From assembly GCF_030013595.1 (NCBI RefSeq), contig NZ_CP122771.1: 64,000 bases of DNA, one strand, 5' to 3'. The stretch is from Escherichia coli (GTDB lineage: Bacteria > Pseudomonadota > Gammaproteobacteria > Enterobacterales > Enterobacteriaceae). The notes below the pieces were generated by a model that saw only the letters and a list, made by a program, of their open reading frames with translations, had not been told where the DNA came from and ran no database searches. The position numbers were made by a program, and so were the translations under genes. Shown here piece after piece: positions 29,769 to 56,855 of the stretch (its first letter is position 1; every line of letters begins with the position of its first letter).

Positions 29769-29967
29769 TGTAAATAAAAAGCATACTTATTGGCTGGAGT
29801 GACGCCTTCGTGCTTCTGTAGTAAAAAGCGGGAAAGGCAGGTAATAGTCAGCAACAGGGAATGTGGTATTATCGCGGCGGGTGTCTGAGCCTTTCTGGTT
29901 CAGGCAAGACGCAGGTACCAGAAATGCGAAGACCCCACTCGTTAATCCATTAACTCGTGAGGCCTGC

Positions 29968-30174
29968 ATGAAGTACCTTAACACTACTGATTGTAGCCTC
30001 TTCCTTGCAGAGAGGTCAAAGTTTATGACGAAATATGCCCTTATCGGGTTGCTCGCCGTGTGCGCCACGGTGTTGTGTTTTTCACTGATATTCAGGGAAC
30101 GGTTATGTGAGCTGAATATTTACAGGGGAAATACAGTGGTGCAGGTAACTCTGGCCTACGAAGCACGGAAGTAA
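29968..30174 (+). CDS. SrnB' overlapping leader ORF (mok-like) of the srnB locus
   Basis: ATG 29968 in frame with the toxin; MKYLNTTDCSLFLAERSKF... precedes the toxin Met. Confidence 0.5.
   Translation: MKYLNTTDCSLFLAERSKFMTKYALIGLLAVCATVLCFSLIFRERLCELNIYRGNTVVQVTLAYEARK
30025..30174 (+). CDS. srnB: SrnB, Hok/Gef-family membrane toxin
   Basis: 49-aa peptide MTKYALIGLLAVCATVLCFSLIFRERLCELNIYRGNTVVQVTLAYEARK matches recalled F SrnB/Hok family. Confidence 0.8.
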   Translation: MTKYALIGLLAVCATVLCFSLIFRERLCELNIYRGNTVVQVTLAYEARK

Positions 30175-42458: not shown

Positions 42459-43072
42459 GCTGCCCTGATTCTGACTACTGCAGTGTTGTCCTGTCTGCCT
42501 GCGCACCTTCGGCTCCCGGCTGCCTGGCGGCATCCGGTCGTCAGGCCCGACTCCGACAGGCAGCTGCTGGCGCACCCGCCAGTCTCCGCCGAACCCGCTG
42601 GCGCGGTTTCGGGCTGTCGCTACGGTCCGATGCGTGAAAACCCCGGGCTTGCAGCGACCGTTCCGGTCGCGCCACCCTTGTCGCGCCGTGGCCTGCGCTC
42701 CCGGCATCCCGGCAAAAGGCCGCCGGGATGTAAGGCGCAACGCCGTTTCGCGCACGCGCTCTCCGTCGTTGCGGCGGGTCCCTGCTCATTGCCTGCCGGG
42801 TGCCACACACCCGTATGAGTCCCTGTCGCCGGGGGCTGATACAGCCACAACCTGCCGCACTGACTGTCCAGGGTAAATGAACAGCCCACAAAATTTTTTA
42901 CCCAAAACCCGGTAAAAAATTTTGCGTTCTGCCCGGGACAGGTGCGTCAGGCCGTGGCAGTGATGCCCCTTGCGGCGAAGGTTCTCAAACGGGTGAAGTT
43001 CATACCACAGGGAATACAGCAGCAGGTTCCCGCGAAACGTCAAAACCGCGGCTCCCGAAACTCAACGGGTGA
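42459..43072 (+). repeat. Leading-region repeat type B, copy 1 (Frpo-like; contains a 14-bp perfect hairpin at 42888-42926)
   Basis: About 600 bp shared with 45926-46373 and 56247-56835; conserved hairpin CAAAATTTTTTACC/GGTAAAAAATTTTG. Confidence 0.7.
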
Positions 43073-43303
43073 TGTTCTTTAAAAATCAGGATTTATTTCA
43101 GGCTCCGGCAATATGCATTTATTTGTTCTGTCAGTCATCCGGCTGGCAGGTAATGAGAACGCAGGAACAGAAGGAGGAAAACACCGGAGAACGTCAGACG
43201 CAGATATGAAAAAAGCAGGTCAGGGACCTGCTTAATCCACACCGCAGAGACTGCACGAACAGTCTTTACGGTTTCATTAATTAACGTCATAAGAGGCTAA
43301 ATT

Positions 43304-45775: not shown

Positions 45776-45925
45776 TTCTTCTTTTTTCTGATGCTCTCAT
45801 TACTGTCTGTTTTGTTGTTCTCCTGCTTATGCCTTTTCCGGGCGTCCCCCTGGCGGGGCGGGCTGTCGTGAACGGAGCCAGCGAAGCTGTCTCCGCCCTG
45901 GCGGGCTTCCATCCCTGACGCCAAA

Positions 45926-46373
45926 CCCCCTGGCTTGCAGCGACCGTTCCGGTCGCGCCGCCTCTGTCGCGCCGTGACCTGCGCTCCCGGCATCCCGGCA
46001 AAAGGCCGCCGGGATGTGAGGGGCAACGCCGTTTCGCGCACGCGCTCTTCGTCGTTGCGGCGGGTGCCTGCCCGTTGTTGTATCCGGTGCCCTGCACCCG
46101 TTTAAGCCCCTGTCGCCGGGGGCAAAGACAGCCACAACCGTCTCCGCCAGTCCAGGGGTGAAATGCACATCCCACAAAAGTTTTTGCCCAAAAGCCGGCA
46201 AAAACTTTTGTGGTCTGCCCCCGGACAGTCGTTTCCGGCCGTGGCAGTGATGCCCCTTGCGGCGAAGGTTCTCAAACGGGTGATGGTTAATACCGGAGGG
46301 AACAAACGGCAGGTCCCCGCAAAACGTCAAAACCGCGGCTCCCGAAACTCAACGGGTGATGGGGGCTGAAAAC
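45926..46373 (+). repeat. Leading-region repeat type B, copy 2 (5'-truncated; hairpin at 46174-46212)
   Basis: Aligns with copy 1 from ...ggcttgcagcgaccgttcc onward; hairpin arms carry compensatory changes. Confidence 0.7.
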
Positions 46374-46394
46374 ATCAACAGAAGGAGACACATC

Positions 46395-49290: not shown

Positions 49291-49725
49291 ATGAAAACTG
49301 AACTGACCCTGAATGTATTACAGACCATGAGTGCACAGGAATATGAAGATATCCGGGCAGCCGGAAGTGATGAACGTCGTGAGCTGACACACGCCGTGAT
49401 GCGGGAACTGGATGCGCCGGACAACTGGACGATGAACGGCGAGTACGGCAGCGAGTTCGGCGGCTTTTTCCCCGTCCAGGTCCGCTTCACGCCTGCCCAC
49501 GAACGTTTTCACCTGGCGTTATGTTCACCGGGCGATGTCTCTCAGGTCTGGGTGCTGGTTCTGGTGAATGCCGGTGGTGAGCCGTTTGCGGTGGTTCAGG
49601 TGCAGCGGCGGTTTGTACCGGAAGCTGTCAGCCATTCACTGGCACTGGCGGCGTCACTGGATGGGCAGGGGTACAGCGTTAACGACATCATCCATATCCT
49701 GATGGCGGAAGGAGGTCAGGCATGA
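49291..49725 (+). CDS. psiB: PsiB, plasmid SOS-inhibition protein B
   Basis: [36 protein letters not shown]... matches recalled F PsiB (144 aa). Confidence 0.9.
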
Positions 49726-50441
49726 GCGCACGTTCACAGGCACTGGTTCCCCTCAGCGCAGAGCAACAGGCCGCATGGCGGGCGGTGGCGGAGACGGAAA
49801 AACGCCGCCATCAGGGAAACTCGCTGGCGGAATATCCGTATGCGGGGGCGTTTTTCCGCTGTCTGAACGGAAGCCGCAGGATATCGCTGTCTGACCTGCG
49901 ATTTTTCATGCCGTCCCTGACCGCAGAAGAACTGCACGGCAACCGTCTTCAGTGGCTGTATGCCATCGATGTGCTGATTGAAACACAGGGCGAGGTCTGC
50001 CTCCTTCCCCTTCCCGGTGATGCAGCAGAGCGGCTGTTCCCGTCGGTGCGGTTCCGTGTCAGGGAACGCAGTCGCCATAAATCCGCGCTGGTCATGCAGA
50101 AGTACAGCCGCCAGCAGGCACGGGAGGCAGAGCAGAAAGCCCGTGCGTACCAGGCGCTGGTTGCTCAGGCTGAAATCGAACTGGCATTCCATTCGCCGGA
50201 GACGGTCGGAAGCTGGCATGCCCGCTGGAGTGACCGGGTGGCGGAGCATGACCTGGAAACGCTGTTCTGGCAGTGGGGTGAGCGTTTTCCGTCACTGGCC
50301 GGAATGGAACGCTGGCAGTGGCAGGATATGCCGTTCTGGCAGGTCATCGCAGAGGCTGGTATGGCGGCAAGGGTGGTCGGTCATGCTGTTCGTGAGATGG
50401 AGCGGTGGATGGTGCCGAACAAACTCCGGGAGGCAGCGTGA
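49722..50441 (+). CDS. psiA: PsiA
   Basis: 239-aa ORF overlapping the psiB stop; size and position as F PsiA. Confidence 0.9.
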
Positions 50442-50474
50442 TGCGTAAGCGGCTCGCCAGAACCGTATTGATAT

Positions 50475-52046
50475 TTACTGAGAGGTCAGATCAACTTTCC
50501 AGGGCAACAGATCGCGTACCCGGTTTGCCGGCCAATCCTGGATATGCTCAATGACGTAACGCAGCCATTTTTCTGGTTCCACATTGTTCAGACGGCATGT
50601 GCCGATCAGCGAGTACAACACCGCCGCATGTTCGCCACCGCTGTCGGAACCCGCGAAGAGCCAGTTTTTCCGGCCTACGGCCACTCCCCGTAAGGCGTTC
50701 TCTGCGATGTTGTTGTCGATTTCCACCCAGCCATTACTGCAGTACACGTTCAGGGCCTCCCACTGTTTCAGCAGGTATGCGAACGCTTTTGCCGTATCCG
50801 AGTGACGCGACAGTGTTTTCATCTGTTCCTGTATCCAGTCATACAGTGACTGCATCAGTGGAGCCGCTCTGGCTTTTCTTGCTGCCAGACGCTGTTCTGC
50901 TGAACATCCCCGGACTTCTGCCTCGATGACATACAGTTCACCGATACGCTGCAGGGCTTCCGTGGTGATGTCGGTTGGCACTCTTGCATGCACATCGTGG
51001 ATTTTTCTCCGGGCATGGGCCATACACGCGGCTTCCGTTATTCTGCCGGATTCGTATAACGCCCGGTAACCACCGTAAGCATCTGCCTGAAGCACACCGC
51101 TGTAACCGGCCAGGTGATTCTGTGGATGGATACCTTTCCGGTCCGGGCTGTACGCGAACCAGACCGCCGGGGGCATCTGTGAACCGGCGTTACGGTCATC
51201 ACGGACATAGACCCACAGCCGGGCAGTTCTTGTTTTACCACTGCCCGGCTCCTGGACCGGAACGGGGATATCATCCGCATGGACTTTACCGGGCATCAGC
51301 ACATACTGGCGCAGCACGTCATACAGCGGCTCCAGCAGTTCAGCAACGGCACCGGTCCAGCGCCCCAGCGTGGCGCGGCTCAGTTCCACGCCCTGACGAA
51401 GGTATATTTCTGACTGGCGGTATAACGGCAGATGGTCTGCATACTTCCCGGTGACGATATGAGCCAGAAGCCCCGCTCCGGCATAACTGCGTGCAATGGG
51501 TTTTGAAGGTACTGGTGCCTGCACGATATGGTCGCACCGGCAACAGGCCAGTTTCGGACGTTGTGTTTCGATAACCTTAAAAGCGCTGCTGATAAGCTCC
51601 AGTTGCTCTGACACATCACACCCCAGAGGACTGAGGTCACCACCACAGGCCGGGCAGCATTCCTCTTCCGGCCGGATGACCCGGGTTTCACGGGGAAGTG
51701 AGGCCGGTAACGGCTTACGGGCTGAAGACTGGCGCAGGGCGGATGGCAGTACCGGGTCATATTGCTCATCCAGCGTTTCCGCCATTTCTTCCTGAAGTGC
51801 GCTGATTCGCTCCTGGGCTTCCTGTATCTGCCGTTCGGTTTTAGCGCGAAGTTTTTCTGAGCTTTTACCGAACTGCATGCGCTGCAGTTTCGCAACCAGC
51901 GCCTTCAGCCGGTTGATTTCGGAAGCATAAGCCGCCACCCGCTGTGAGAGCAGGCGGTTGTATTTCGCCATCTGGCGGATGGTGTCCTGTTGCGTCTGCA
52001 ACAGTGCCCGCAGGCGGGCATTCTCATGAGCAAGTGAGGTGTCCAT
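50475..52046 (-). CDS. IS66-family transposase (TnpC)
   Basis: 523 aa with N-terminal coiled coil, CxxC...CC zinc-finger region and DDE-type core typical of IS66 TnpC. Confidence 0.9.
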
Positions 52047-52065
52047 ATCCTCACTTTACAACGGG

Positions 52066-52413
52066 TTATATGCGGATGCCAGCGCGTTCCGTTCGTTTCG
52101 GGTGCTTCCAGTCGATGCCTTCGAGAAGCATGGACAACTGAGCCGGAGTAAGGTGAACCTTTCCATCGCGGGTGACCGGCCAGACGAAGCGGCCCCGCTC
52201 CAGGCGTTTGGTGAAGAGGCACAGTCCGTCACTGTCAGCCCACAGCACTTTTATCTGGTCACCCCGGCGTCCGCGGAAGATGAACAGATGCCCGGAGAAC
52301 GGGTCATCCTTCAGGACGTTCTGAACTTTTGAGGCCAGGCCGTTAAAGCCATTTCGCATATCGGTGATACCGGCAACCAGCCAGATACGCGAACCGGCAG
52401 GGAGAGATATCAT
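52066..52413 (-). CDS. IS66-family accessory protein TnpB (Orf2)
   Basis: 115 aa, MISLPAGSRIWLVAGITDMRNGFNGLA... typical IS66 Orf2. Confidence 0.85.
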   Translation of the reverse strand: MISLPAGSRIWLVAGITDMRNGFNGLASKVQNVLKDDPFSGHLFIFRGRRGDQIKVLWADSDGLCLFTKRLERGRFVWPVTRDGKVHLTPAQLSMLLEGIDWKHPKRTERAGIRI

Positions 52414-53063
52414 CAGTGGCTGCTCCCTTTCATTTCGCGGATAAGTGTCTGTAATAACGCCGGTGTCAGTTCACCTTTCAGCCTGAGAGTTCCGGCCGGC
52501 AGAACCAGCTCGCAGCACAGACTGTCTGGCAGTGTATTTATCTGTTCAGGTATCTGCACTGGTGCCGGGATTTTATTATCCGGCTCCGGAGTTAACGTCA
52601 CGGGAAGTAGCGATGTTTCATGTTCGCCGGGCGGTTGCAGGCCACCGTTACGCCAGAGATGCCGCCAGTTAAAGAGCAGGTTATCGTTAATTCCATTCTC
52701 TCGAGCTATTTGTGCGACACAAGCACCGGGTAAAAGAGTTTGCTGAACCAGTCTCCATTTAAACTCCGGTGAAAATCGGTTCCGGCGGGGTTTCTCTGCT
52801 TTCACAGGCTGAGTCACGGTCGGGGCTGAAGGGTATCGCCCCGGGAAAAGAGCCCGGGCCAGTTGCCCGCAGGAATATTCACCGGAAAGAGGCCAGTCAG
52901 TGAATACCTGGTGAAATCGCCTCACCAGAGAAAAAATGGCGGTTTTGCTGACACCGGTCTGCGCAGAAATGCGCGGGTACGACAGTGACTCGTCAAATCT
53001 CAGCTGTAGCACACGCAGGATCAATTCCGGATTGTCTGCCAGTACCGCTTTTCGTGCATTCAT
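52413..53063 (-). CDS. IS66-family accessory protein TnpA (Orf1, HTH)
   Basis: 216-aa ORF overlapping the tnpB start; first gene of the IS66 operon. Confidence 0.75.
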   Translation of the reverse strand: MNARKAVLADNPELILRVLQLRFDESLSYPRISAQTGVSKTAIFSLVRRFHQVFTDWPLSGEYSCGQLARALFPGRYPSAPTVTQPVKAEKPRRNRFSPEFKWRLVQQTLLPGACVAQIARENGINDNLLFNWRHLWRNGGLQPPGEHETSLLPVTLTPEPDNKIPAPVQIPEQINTLPDSLCCELVLPAGTLRLKGELTPALLQTLIREMKGSSH

Positions 53064-53374
53064 CTTAAATGTCCCTTTACTGCGAAAATGGACATTAGTA
53101 TCGGAAACAGGAAAGGGAGGCGAAAGACGGTTTAAATGAGACGGTTACCGTGATGCGGCAACAATCACATGGATTTCCCGTGAACGGTCTGAATGAGCGG
53201 ATTATTTTCAGGGAAAGTGAGTGTGGTCAGCGTGCAGGTATATGGGCTATGATGTGCCCGGCGCTTGAGGCTTTCTGCCTCATGACGTGAAGGTGGTTTG
53301 TTGCCGTGTTGTGTGGCAGAAAGAAGATAGCCCCGTAGTAAGTTAATTTTCATTAACCACCACGAGGCATCCCT

Positions 53375-53587
53375 ATGTCTAGTCCACATCAGGATAGCCT
53401 CTTACCGCGCTTTGCGCAAGGAGAAGAAGGCCATGAAACTACCACGAAGTTCCCTTGTCTGGTGTGTGTTGATCGTGTGTCTCACACTGTTGATATTCAC
53501 TTATCTGACACGAAAATCGCTGTGCGAGATTCGTTACAGAGACGGACACAGGGAGGTGGCGGCTTTCATGGCTTACGAATCCGGTAA
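53375..53587 (+). CDS. mok: Mok (FlmC) leader ORF overlapping hok
   Basis: 70-codon ORF overlapping hok in a different frame, as in hok/sok loci. Confidence 0.5.
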
Positions 53588-53591: not shown

Positions 53592-53902
53592 CAACCTGGA
53601 GGCGGGCGCAGGCCCGCCTTTTCAGGACTGATGCTGGTCTGACTACTGAAGCGCCTTTATAAAGGGGCTGCTGGTTCGCCGGTAGCCCCTTTCTCCTTGC
53701 TGATGTTGTACGGGCATGAACAACCTGACTTCAGGAAGGTCGTTTCCCTTCAGGAACGGGGATGAACGCGCGCCTGCGGCGCCCGTTCTTTTCCCCCGCC
53801 TTCTCTGGTTATGGCCTGTCAGAAATCACATCACCTTCCCTGTGATTATTCTCTTTTTCTTCCTGCTCTGATTCTGACTACTGCAGTGTTGTCCTGTCTG
53901 CC

Positions 53903-56246
53903 GGGTCGGGTAGCAGCGGCACATTGCTGCGCCGCCGCCCCCTAAGAACGGAGCGTGCGAGTTTTCCCGCACTCCGCTCAAGCCTTTATAAGTGCTTTCG
54001 GTGAGCACCGGCTTCCCTGCTGTGTAACTGTCGGTGGCAGTTCGGATGTAACAACTCGAGATTGGTCAGTTCGTCACTGCCGCCCATAACTTTCCTGATC
54101 CGGTGATGTATATTCCATCCGGTCTGGTTGGTTATGAGTTGTCCGCACTGCGGACAGTGTTTCCCCTGCCTCTTCCAGAGTTGAACTACTGTCTTCATCT
54201 TCTTTGATTTGCCTTTCCAGATTAGATCCAGACGACGTTCAAAGTAGATTTCCATTCCGGGGGTGTATGGTGTTGCTTCGCCTTTGATTTTTATATGGCG
54301 CTTTATCGGTGTTTCCATTGCCCGGAAGAGTGTCAGAATTTTCCCTTCCGGGGTTATGGCTTTAAAGATCCAGCGCCTGCCTTCAAAGGAGAAGTATCGT
54401 CCGGCGATCCACCGCAATCCTTTCCGGGGATGCCGTCTTACACACCATCGCCATATAGCTCGCCAGATTTGGGTGTCGACATAATTAAATGTTTCTTTCG
54501 CCACGACGTGTCGGTGATAGGTAGCCCATCCCCGGATCACCGGGTTTAGCTGGCCTATCAGTTTCCATGCCGGGAGCGTCGGATTGCGTTTAATTATTTC
54601 TCTGACTTTACAGAGGAAGTTCTTCAGGTTTTTCTTCGACGGTTTAATCAGCATTTTACCGTTGTACTTCCTGACGTTCTGCCCTAAAAAGTCGAAGCCT
54701 TTATCTATATGTGTGATCGCTGTTTTTTCTTCCGACAGTTCCAGCCCTCGTTCGCGCATGAAAGCTGCAATCAGTGGTCTGACCTCATTTTCCAGCAATT
54801 CACGGGAGCTGCCTGAACAGATGAAATCATCAGCATATCTCACATAATTCACCTGGTGCTTTGCACTGTGATAACCACTTTTCCTGAACGTTTGCATCAG
54901 TTCCTTCTCCAGTCCGTCCAGAGCCATGTTGGCGAGAACAGGGGATATGATGCCTCCCTGCGGTGTCCCGCTGTTCGTATGGTTAAACACGCCTCTTTCC
55001 ATGTAACCTGCTTTCAACCATTTTTTAAGCAGTCTCCTGTCCATCGGAATATGGGAAAGCAGCCAGTCATGGCTGATGTTATCGAAACACCCTTTAATAT
55101 CGCCCTCCAGTATCCATTTGGGCGATACTTTCTGGCTCATCCGCAGAAAAATGGACTCAATGGCGTCATGCGTGCTGCGCATTGGTCTGAAACCATAGCT
55201 GTTATGGTCAGCAGTGGTCTCGGATACGGGTTCCAGAGCCAGCAGCCACAGTGCCTGCATGGCCCGGTCCCTCATTGTGGGTATGCCCAGCGGTCGCGTT
55301 TTGCCGTTTGATTTTGGGATATGTATTCGCCGTAGTGGCTGTGGCCTGTAACCACACAGATTCAGGCTGCATATTCCTTCCCATTTCTCCTTCGGTGTGT
55401 GCCATATTTTTCCGTCAATACCGGGTGTCCTTTTACCGGTATTTTCAGTTACACGCCTGACAGCCACGGCTTTGCCGGAGAATGAGCGGGTGAGGATGCG
55501 CTGTAGTTCTCTGACCTGCCGCCATTGTTGCTGTCGGGTTGCCTTTGCAATCCGTAACTGTAGCTTTCGCACCCGGGCATGGCATGCTTTCCAGTTTATG
55601 GTGTGCCAGCCTGTCGGGTGGGGTATCGTGGACACACTGATGTGTGTATTCATCTCGCTGATATCCTTTTGACTGCTTTACAGCTTTTCATGCAATTAAA
55701 GACCAGACGGAAGTCTGCCCGCTTTCGCGTCGGGGAACCTGCCCCGTATCCCGGTTATTACGGCCGGGCATTCGCTTTTTCCGTCCTCCTATGCCCGCAC
55801 CGCTAACAGTGTTCCTTGCGGTTCACCTGCCTGTGAGGCAGCGATACGGGTTTACCAGGTTCCGCTTAACATACAGAGGGTCAGGGCGGGTTCTGTCTCT
55901 TCACCGGGGGTCTCTGCGCCCATGTGCTCCCTGTGCGCGAGGTAGCAACCGGACCCCGTACCTTTTGGTTCAGGCCTGTCAGCATCTTTGGCCTGTTGCC
56001 GATAACGGTGTTTATCAACAGTTCACATGTGTTAACCCTTCTGACCAGCCTTGCTCTCCTGCCGCATGATGCTTGCAGCAAGGTAAAGCCCCTCACGGGG
56101 CTTTACCCGGGCTGACGCCCGGCTCTCGTTGTCCCGGGAGCTTCAGACCCCGCCGTTGCCGGCAACGCCTGTCCCGGTAGGCTACAGCTAATGGGATAGC
56201 TGGTTTTATCAATGTAAAACAATACGTTAAGCGACTTCCTGTCGCA
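53903..56246 (-). mobile_element. Group II intron (about 2.34 kb) inserted in a type B leading-region repeat; low-coordinate boundary uncertain by about 10 bp
   Basis: Minus-strand 5' end GTGCGAC at 56246; domain V GAGCGGAGTGCGGGAAAACTCGCACGCTCCGTTC at 53946-53979; flanks rejoin to match uninterrupted copy 1 at 42459-42510. Confidence 0.8.
53986..55653 (-). CDS. Group II intron-encoded protein (reverse transcriptase / maturase / HNH endonuclease)
   Basis: 555 aa with RT motifs (YADD), maturase X region and C-terminal HNH-like Cys/His cluster. Confidence 0.9.
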   Translation of the reverse strand: MNTHISVSTIPHPTGWHTINWKACHARVRKLQLRIAKATRQQQWRQVRELQRILTRSFSGKAVAVRRVTENTGKRTPGIDGKIWHTPKEKWEGICSLNLCGYRPQPLRRIHIPKSNGKTRPLGIPTMRDRAMQALWLLALEPVSETTADHNSYGFRPMRSTHDAIESIFLRMSQKVSPKWILEGDIKGCFDNISHDWLLSHIPMDRRLLKKWLKAGYMERGVFNHTNSGTPQGGIISPVLANMALDGLEKELMQTFRKSGYHSAKHQVNYVRYADDFICSGSSRELLENEVRPLIAAFMRERGLELSEEKTAITHIDKGFDFLGQNVRKYNGKMLIKPSKKNLKNFLCKVREIIKRNPTLPAWKLIGQLNPVIRGWATYHRHVVAKETFNYVDTQIWRAIWRWCVRRHPRKGLRWIAGRYFSFEGRRWIFKAITPEGKILTLFRAMETPIKRHIKIKGEATPYTPGMEIYFERRLDLIWKGKSKKMKTVVQLWKRQGKHCPQCGQLITNQTGWNIHHRIRKVMGGSDELTNLELLHPNCHRQLHSREAGAHRKHL

Positions 56247-56835
56247 CGCGCACCTTCGGCTCCCGGCTGCCTGGCGGCATCCGGTCGTCAGGCCCGACTC
56301 CGACAGGCAGCTGCTGGCGCACCTGCCAGTCTCCGCCGAACCCGCTGGCGCGGTTTCGGGCTGTCGCTACGGTCCGATGCGTGAAAACCCCGGGCTTGCA
56401 GCGACCGTTCCGGTCGCGCCGCCTCTGTCGCGCCGTGGCCTGCGCTCCCGGCATCCCGGCAAAAGGCCGCCGGGATGTAAGGCGCAACGCCGTTTCGCAA
56501 ACCGCGCTTCACGTCGTTGCGGCGGGTCCCTGCCCGTTGTTGTGTCCGGTGCCATTCACCTGTTTAAGCCCCTGTCGCCGGGGGCATAGACAGCCACAAC
56601 CGTCTCCGCCAGTCCAGGGGTGAAATGCACATCCCGCAAAACTTTTTGCCCAGAAGCAGGCAAAAACTTTTGCGGTCTGCCCCCGGACAGTCGTTTCCGG
56701 CCGTGGCAGTGATGCCCCATGCGGCGAAGGTTCTCAAACAGGTGATGGTGAATACCGGAGGGAACAAAAGGCAGGTCCCCGCAAAACGTCAAAACCGCGG
56801 CTCCCGAAACTCAACAGATGATGGGGGCTGAAAAC
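56247..56835 (+). repeat. Leading-region repeat type B, copy 3 (its 5' portion at 53862-53902 is separated by the intron; hairpin at 56635-56674)
   Basis: Aligns with copy 1 from gcgcaccttcggctcccggctgcctggcgg onward. Confidence 0.7.
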
Positions 56836-56855
56836 CAGAGAGAGGAGAAAGCAGG

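Follow-up and report, generated by a model that had tools for sequence, protein, structure and literature searches.

The plus strand of the 64-kb window, by which the whole stretch of DNA analysed here is meant, carries in order an ssb-like gene, a parB-like gene, psiB and psiA, with traJ/FinP at 59.8 kb. Downstream of psiA lies an insertion sequence (IS) of the IS66 family, present as a single copy in the window and oriented opposite to psiA, which separates psiB and psiA from a hok/sok type I toxin-antitoxin cassette (flm of the F leading region; Table 1). This placement had been proposed in a sequence-only reading of the same DNA and is supported by profile matches on either side, to PsiB and PsiA on the left and to HOK_GEF and RF01794 on the right. 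The cassette is complete, with the Hok ORF, the overlapping mok and the leader/sok structure, and its 3' fold-back/terminator region, with the AAGCGCC element and, ahead of a T-rich run, a GC hairpin, is present up to about 53697. Immediately ahead of the hok mRNA leader is a promoter-like site, the position of which is consistent with the Rfam match beginning at 53259. Frpo-like ssDNA-promoter repeats are found at 45787-46376 and 56248-56838, kilobases away from the insertion.

Table 1. Features at the psiA-hok/sok interval (positions in the window)
Feature	Position	Strand	Remarks
psiB, 145 aa	49288..49725	+	upstream neighbour; Pfam PsiB PF06290, E 8e-63
psiA, 239 aa, intact	49722..50441	+	Pfam PsiA PF06952, E 1e-37, profile positions 3-236 of 237
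Target-site duplication, left copy	50437..50444		8 bp, CGTGATGC
IS679-type IS66-family insertion sequence	50445..53148		2704 bp; all three tnp genes on the minus strand
IRR, terminal inverted repeat at tnpC end	50445..50469		GTAAGCGGCTCGCCAGAACCGTATT; 25-nt imperfect repeat; same terminus in other copies
tnpC, DDE transposase, 523 aa	50475..52046	-	Pfam and NCBIfam
tnpB, IS66 accessory protein, 115 aa	52066..52413	-	Pfam TnpB_IS66 and NF033819
tnpA, IS66-like accessory protein, HTH, 216 aa	52413..53063	-	Pfam HTH_Tnp_1 and NF038385
IRL, terminal inverted repeat at tnpA end	53124..53148		reverse complement GTAACCGTCTCATTTAAACCGTCTT; a variant of the terminus of IS679-labelled copies (...GATGCGCTTAC)
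Target-site duplication, right copy	53149..53156		8 bp, CGTGATGC
Promoter-like site TGGTCA-18-TATGAT	53224..53253	+	consensus match only; begins 68 bp to the right of the duplication
hok mRNA leader / sok antisense region	53259..53435	+	Rfam RF01794, 88.9 bits (gathering score 59), full model 1-157
mok, intact	53375..53587	+	ORF
hok, intact	ATG of Hok frame at 53433, end 53591	+	ORF; Pfam HOK_GEF PF01848, 76 bits

The three-gene arrangement typical of IS66, which the earlier reading had recognised, consists of full-length ORFs in the order tnpA-tnpB-tnpC, with the ATG of tnpB and the TGA of tnpA sharing one base (TGATG) and a gap of 19 nt between tnpB and tnpC. The family assignment, for which an ISfinder comparison had been suggested, is borne out by matches far above the cutoffs of the IS66 protein models, used here as a proxy. 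The tnpC product matches DDE_Tnp_IS66 (PF03050) with 347 bits (cutoff 23.1) over positions 1-283 of 284, as well as zf-IS66, LZ_Tnp_IS66 and DDE_Tnp_IS66_C in Pfam and NF033517 in NCBIfam (476 bits, cutoff 180), and the exact protein is found on 405 public contigs. Corresponding matches were obtained for the products of tnpB (PF05717, 136.8 bits; NF033819, 128.9 bits, cutoff 50) and tnpA (PF01527, 61.8 bits; NF038385, 283.6 bits, cutoff 150).

The terminal inverted repeats of the IS66 family are about 20-30 bp long with the consensus start GTAAGCG. In the present element the tnpC-side end begins with GTAAGCGGCTC and the tnpA-side end with the variant GTAACCGTCTC, and the two termini match at 17 of 25 positions. 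The ends of every intact related copy examined fall at the same bases. The variant GTAACCGTCTC departs from the GTAAGCG of the opposite end and of IS679-labelled copies, and copies bearing a terminus of this type have duplications at several sites.

Within the IS66 family, the element probably represents an isoform, or else a close variant, of IS679, as judged from sequence identity and organisation; the name as used here rests on labels assigned by PGAP and on the original description. Compared with a copy labelled “IS679 family” by PGAP, the identity is 97.3% at the nucleotide level, 97.2% for TnpA, 100% for TnpB and 97.9% for TnpC, while copies that are 100% identical to the present element are named by PGAP no more specifically than “IS66 family transposase”. 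IS679 was reportedly described by Han et al. in 2001 from the EPEC plasmid pB171 as an element of 2,704 bp whose 25-bp terminal inverted repeats are imperfect and whose target duplication measures 8 bp. In the same description its genes are said to be arranged as tnpA-tnpB-tnpC, with the start of tnpB overlapping the TGA of tnpA in the -1 frame and about 20 bp separating tnpB from tnpC. All of these features, from length, repeats and duplication to gene order, overlap and gap, are seen in the present element. The IS679-labelled copies differ from it in the last ~9 nt of the tnpA-side end (...GATGCGCTTAC as opposed to ...GAGACGGTTAC here), which weakens the match between its inverted repeats.

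ISCro1 of Citrobacter rodentium and E. coli is a close relative as well, with TnpC 97.3% and TnpB 99.1% identical, transposases in the same 90% protein cluster, DNA 94% identical over nt 1-2286 and a tnpC-side terminus that differs at two of the first 25 bases. Its TnpA, in contrast, is only 57% identical (225 aa compared with 216 aa here) and the DNA homology ends at nt 2286, which rules out identity with ISCro1 and implies that the tnpA module and the adjoining end come from a different lineage. The prototype IS66 of the Agrobacterium Ti plasmid shares the three ORFs and the 8-bp duplication (PMC6778807) as well as the Pfam and NCBIfam families; it is a distant sequence relative from a different host group, likened to the present element by description and families.

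The boundaries of the element could be set independently of the flanking repeat, as identical copies elsewhere align with it over positions 1-2704 at 100% identity. These homology-defined ends confirm the length given in the sequence-only reading and coincide with the two copies of CGTGATGC, the 8-bp direct duplication which that reading had seen bracketing the element; the 8 bp before one end equal the 8 bp after the other, for which the chance probability is 4^-8 = 1.5e-5. Duplications of 8 bp have been reported for IS66 (PMC6778807). When the flanks are joined with a single CGTGATGC, the resulting sequence is covered to at least 80% by at least 4162 plasmids, so that the proposed comparison with plasmids lacking the insertion also came out in its favour. 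Among the matches listed, two plasmids, CP122741.1 and NZ_CP122686.1, carry the empty-site sequence at 100% identity, and CP122741.1 crosses the empty junction in one ungapped segment of 1805 bp at 99.9% identity. At the level of sequence comparison, this empty site can be regarded as the decisive test of a simple insertion.

The TGA stop codon of psiA (50439-50441) falls within the left duplication, as had been pointed out before, and the element starts three bases after the end of the gene. As this copy of the duplication stays joined to psiA, the PsiA protein is unchanged; the coding sequence is 720 nt long also in plasmids with an uninterrupted psiA stop. By the evidence of their reading frames and profile matches, both PsiA and hok/mok/sok are left intact by the insertion.

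Copies that are 100% identical and full length exist in many E. coli plasmids and in many contexts. Seven copies in other plasmids are each flanked by a perfect 8-bp duplication, with six different octamers among them (CACGAAAA, TTTTTATC, TTTCTGAC, GATTGCCC, ATTACTGC in two plasmids, and ACATCACC), and an eighth copy has the duplication TGTTGTTC. No motif common to the eight distinct target octamers is obvious in this small sample. Copies at 99.9% identity or more occupy several different sites with fresh duplications; together with the intact ORFs, this is indirect evidence that the present copy may still be active. Insertions of IS679/ISCro1-type elements are also found in the psiA-hok-Frpo1 interval of other F plasmids (CP122741.1, NZ_AP027433.1, NZ_CP040454.1, NZ_CP080236.1 and pTC1). 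They resemble the present one in that the same or a closely related 2704-bp element, with an 8-bp duplication in each case, occupies the same stretch of the leading region, which is non-essential, and they differ from it in using other octamers and positions and both orientations, with one of them disrupting hok.

Taken together, the locus is almost certainly the product of transposition of an intact IS679-type IS66-family element into the leading region of an F-type plasmid, with duplication of an 8-bp target. Cutting and repair with target duplication is the general mechanism of DDE transposases. Here, the transposase would have cut the two strands of CGTGATGC, which spans the psiA stop, with a stagger of 8 bp, and repair of the gaps would have duplicated this octamer. 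Only minor consequences are expected: psiA and hok would be 2.7 kb further apart, and the direct transcriptional continuity from the ssb-psiB-psiA unit to mok/hok would be lost. Since psiB and psiA are upstream of the insertion, any change in early leading-region transcription, as suggested in the sequence-only reading, would at most be an uncoupling of mok/hok from psiA read-through. A consensus scan of the plus strand at 53064-53223 revealed no promoter, outward or hybrid, where the element faces hok. The phenotype is thus predicted to be near-neutral.

The place in which this event occurred is less evident than the event itself. It is conceivable, if improbable, that the element arrived already in place by homologous recombination with another F-type plasmid bearing the same psiA::IS junction, as the right side of the window is mosaic relative to the closest relative of its left side, and pig ETEC F plasmids co-reside and have long identical segments in common. 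The junction, however, is absent from PLSDB (72,556 plasmids) and from 5,426 complete E. coli genomes, in which all matches consist of two separated pieces; this leaves the recombination without a donor in either collection and implies that the event is private to the present lineage. Moreover, the junction must first have arisen by the transposition described above, so that recombination would only change where it took place.

A somewhat smaller probability is assigned to the insertion being regulatory or adaptive, in which case it would cut mok/hok from Frpo2-driven read-through of ssb-psiB-psiA or change the 3' end of psiA and would have been selected for altered early expression in the recipient or altered hok dosage. 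The Frpo2 unit of F comprises ssb-yfjA-yfjB-psiB-psiA-flmC, and the mok homologue flmC is therefore among the genes downstream of Frpo2 (PMC9849209). The empty-site sequence has no terminator-like site on its plus strand from the psiA stop as far as the hok promoter-like site, and a sister plasmid has the same IS within hok itself. Against this, psiB and psiA are upstream and untouched, and hok/sok is a complete cassette with its own promoter-like site. Deletion of Frpo2, ssb or psiB had no significant effect on the conjugation efficiency of F (PMC9849209), the absence of the junction from both collections gives no sign of spread or recurrence, and insertions of this type are no less frequent downstream of finO, which leaves no enrichment at the present locus to be explained.

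The last point bears on the idea that the present insertion is one instance of preferential targeting, by IS679/ISCro1-type elements and a group II intron, of the hok-proximal F leading region between two Frpo-like repeats, which would be single-stranded or specially structured on entry into the recipient. Elements of this type lie within ~0.8 kb downstream of psiA in 44 records in the present orientation and in 22 in the other. The matched control at the 3' end of finO yielded at least 58 such records, which argues against a special enrichment between the repeats, and a hotspot between psiA and hok was rejected on these grounds. An orientation bias relative to the transferred strand was likewise rejected, the ratio being only 2:1 among records that are phylogenetically non-independent. 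Preferential targeting is considered very unlikely. Two observations may be recorded as hints of targeting, namely the use of an identical target octamer, in both orientations, by insertions in two plasmids, and the presence of an intron boundary within a few bp of this shared octamer.

That the 8-bp repeat is coincidental and the element a remnant or a piece of a larger rearrangement has next to no probability and is already refuted by the empty site: CGTGATGC is not rare in itself (six occurrences in the 64-kb window, somewhat above the 2.85 expected from shuffled sequence) and two related copies without matching duplications do mark rearrangements, but here the repeat exactly adjoins the two ends of the element as set by homology, none of the three genes is truncated, and removal of the element with one repeat restores a sequence that is intact in thousands of plasmids.

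The transposition at the psiA stop is a clean but routine event of a kind already known, which has little significance beyond correct annotation and raises no new biological question. For annotation, an intact IS679-type IS66-family IS with its 8-bp duplication should be entered and psiA and hok/sok should both be called intact. Because the junction is absent from both collections searched, the insertion is a useful lineage marker. With regard to the family, it adds one more copy of an IS which is actively spreading among pig-associated E. coli plasmids and which can seed IS-mediated recombination between replicons.

The element between psiA and hok/sok runs from GTAAGCGGCTCGCCAGAACCGTATT to ...AAGACGGTTTAAATGAGACGGTTAC and is flanked on both sides by CGTGATGC, as established by direct reading and by script; its two ends pair as an imperfect inverted repeat of 25 nt, in which 17 positions match (script). 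The sequence-only reading had placed the psiA stop codon inside the left copy of an 8-bp duplication bracketing a 2704-bp element. This holds, with the psiA TGA at 50439-50441 and the insertion point three bases past it. As CGTGATGC is not a rare octamer (six occurrences in the 64-kb window against 2.85 expected), the repeat by itself is weak evidence for an insertion. Its weight comes from adjoining both ends of an independently delimited element, whose ends coincide with the duplication and whose homologous copies align over query positions 1-2704.

Features of the insertion and its surroundings in the window
Feature	Position	Strand	Remarks
traG/traD/traI, finO	first 27 kb
Second hok/sok-type locus	29879-30035		Rfam sok, 98.2 bits
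CopA, RepA	near 31 kb		leading region follows
Frpo-like repeat	42501-43089
Frpo-like repeat	45787-46376		directly upstream of ssb-like gene
psiA ORF	49722-50441	plus	Pfam PsiA
Left duplication	50437-50444		CGTGATGC
IS element	50445-53148		2704 bp; genes on minus strand
tnpC	52046-50475	minus	523 aa; DDE_Tnp_IS66 full profile, 347 bits; NF033517 476 bits (cutoff 180)
tnpB	52413-52066	minus	115 aa; PF05717, NF033819
tnpA	53063-52413	minus	216 aa; HTH_Tnp_1; NF038385 283.6 bits (cutoff 150)
Right duplication	53149-53156		CGTGATGC
Promoter-like site	53224-53253		consensus match, right of IS
hok leader/sok	53259-53435	plus	full-length Rfam match
Intron domain 5	53905-53981		Rfam
Intron RT/maturase/HNH ORF	53986-55653
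Intron D1-D4 model	56054-56203		Rfam
Intron 5' GTGCG	56247		adjoins Frpo-like repeat
Frpo-like repeat	56248-56838
traJ/FinP	59.8 kb

The empty site gives the classical proof that the element simply inserted and duplicated its target. Alignment with related plasmids lacking the insertion had been proposed as a check, and a 353-nt query joining both flanks by a single CGTGATGC is covered to at least 80% by at least 4162 plasmids. Two of these, CP122741.1 and NZ_CP122686.1, match at 100% identity; the former, 98.9% identical to the window over 22.4 kb of left backbone, spans the insertion point as one 1805-bp aligned segment (99.9%). This continuous empty site in relatives rules out both a rearrangement and a chance repeat.

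The proposed three-gene IS66 arrangement is borne out by profile matches to all three genes, with tnpC also matching the IS66 zinc-finger, leucine-zipper and C-terminal modules in a profile search. The tnpB ATG overlaps the tnpA TGA (TGATG), with 19 nt between tnpB and tnpC. For IS66, too, PMC6778807 gives a duplication of 8 bp. The exact TnpA, TnpB and TnpC sequences are all already public, TnpC on 405 contigs. Compared with a copy labelled "IS679 family" by PGAP, the element is 97.3% identical in DNA and 97.2, 100 and 97.9% in TnpA, TnpB and TnpC. Against the ISCro1-labelled copy of the ETEC H10407 chromosome (NC_017633.1), TnpC and TnpB are 97-99% identical, whereas TnpA identity drops to 57% and homology at the DNA level ends at nt 2286, which rules out ISCro1. 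By its TnpA and DNA the element is thus of IS679 type. IS679 is said, in the work of Han and colleagues from 2001, to measure 2,704 bp, with imperfect 25-bp inverted repeats, 8-bp duplications and three essential ORFs arranged exactly as here. The two types share tnpC and tnpB (94-99% identity), with unrelated tnpA modules and tnpA-side ends (IS nt 2286-2704); these E. coli IS66-family elements are thus mosaics between which the tnpA/IRL module is exchanged.

A megablast of 50445-53148 against 72,556 plasmids matched 2743 records, 100 of them with a best place of at least 99% identity; the best 25 rows are all 100% identical across query 1-2704, in unrelated contexts. The related copies in ten loci are each exactly 2704 bp, and eight have their own perfect 8-bp duplication: CACGAAAA (L001), TTTTTATC (L002), TTTCTGAC (L003), GATTGCCC (L004), ATTACTGC (L005 and L006), ACATCACC (L009) and TGTTGTTC (L010). 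The last ~9 nt on the tnpA side read ...GAGACGGTTAC here and ...GATGCGCTTAC in IS679-labelled copies; as copies that end in this variant have freshly duplicated targets at several sites, this form is evidently mobile. The 8-bp flanks differ around the other two of the ten, IS66-type copies near psiA/hok in CP024976.1 (TGAATGAG/AGCTGACC) and NZ_LR883014.1 (GATTATTC/TTTACCCT), which indicates later IS-mediated deletions or recombination in their leading regions. L005 (NZ_CP080236.1, 4530-7233) and L006 (CP122842.1, 4530-7233) carry the same IS at the same octamer in opposite orientations, at window-equivalent ~53884, a few bp from the group II intron boundary; this means either inversion in place or re-use of one target. 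In L001 (CP122741.1, 4661-7364), the nearest relative of the present plasmid, a 99.93% identical copy of the IS lies in the same orientation inside the hok coding sequence (window-equivalent 53509-53516), with the psiA-stop site empty. The two insertions are independent events in sister plasmids of pig ETEC.

The window comprises most of an F-type plasmid, and the placement between psiB-psiA and hok/mok stands, with psiA to the left and complete hok/mok/sok to the right. Both psi genes are intact (Pfam). After the leader come mok and hok (hok matching HOK_GEF, 76 bits), then the AAGCGCC element of the 3' region and a hairpin, as far as about 53697. With these and the promoter-like site retained, the insertion, 68 bp upstream of that site, interrupts no recognisable feature. 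A 74-aa minus-strand ORF (53165-53389), antisense to the hok leader and publicly labelled "hypothetical protein" or "theronine dehydrogenase", overlaps the region of the hok/sok RNAs and is almost certainly an artefact of annotation. The second hok/sok module lies close to the CopA/RepA replicon, and possession of two may explain why relatives tolerate losing the leading-region copy.

In F, the ssDNA promoter Frpo2 drives ssb-yfjA-yfjB-psiB-psiA-flmC, Frpo1 lies ~5 kb farther along with flm in between, and conjugation shows no measurable change in efficiency once Frpo2, ssb or psiB is deleted (PMC9849209). Three ~590-bp direct repeats, of which certain pairs share segments of up to 94-98% identity, lie upstream of leading-region genes here, the position of Frpo1/Frpo2 in F; the copy ahead of the genes at 43.3-45.6 kb points to a third early unit. 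As one repeat precedes the ssb-like gene, the IS sits at the distal end of an Frpo2-type unit. No plus-strand terminator-like site was found between psiA and mok/hok in the empty-site sequence, which makes loss of psiA read-through into mok/hok the sole plausible transcriptional effect. The suggested alteration of early leading-region transcription is speculative and probably small, and a near-neutral phenotype would be expected. A minus-strand terminator-like hairpin (GTTGCCG-CATCA-CGGTAAC and a T-rich run, 53144-53162), formed at the junction of right duplication and IS terminus just upstream of tnpA, is probably fortuitous; transcription that reaches the IS from the direction of hok could be weakened by it. 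Just downstream of hok lies a complete minus-strand group II intron (~53886-56247), found at the same place in other F plasmids; with intron and IS combined, the distance from Frpo to Frpo is doubled, to 10.5 kb.

The exact psiA-IS junction was not found in PLSDB or 5,426 complete E. coli genomes, all matches falling in two separated pieces. A hotspot or strand bias was suspected from IS679/ISCro1-type elements within ~0.8 kb downstream of psiA, in the same orientation in 44 plasmids and the opposite in 22, the hok-interrupted sister among them. The 2:1 ratio is unremarkable given clonal redundancy, and a matched control at the finO 3' end, with such elements just downstream in at least 58 plasmids, speaks against a hotspot. 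The observation and its structural interpretation were both correct: this is a known IS and an ordinary transposition. Preferential targeting of the inter-Frpo region, with this insertion as one case, would be the sole remaining novelty if true, and is very improbable; the psiA-hok interval is simply one among several permissive stretches that gather these abundant elements.
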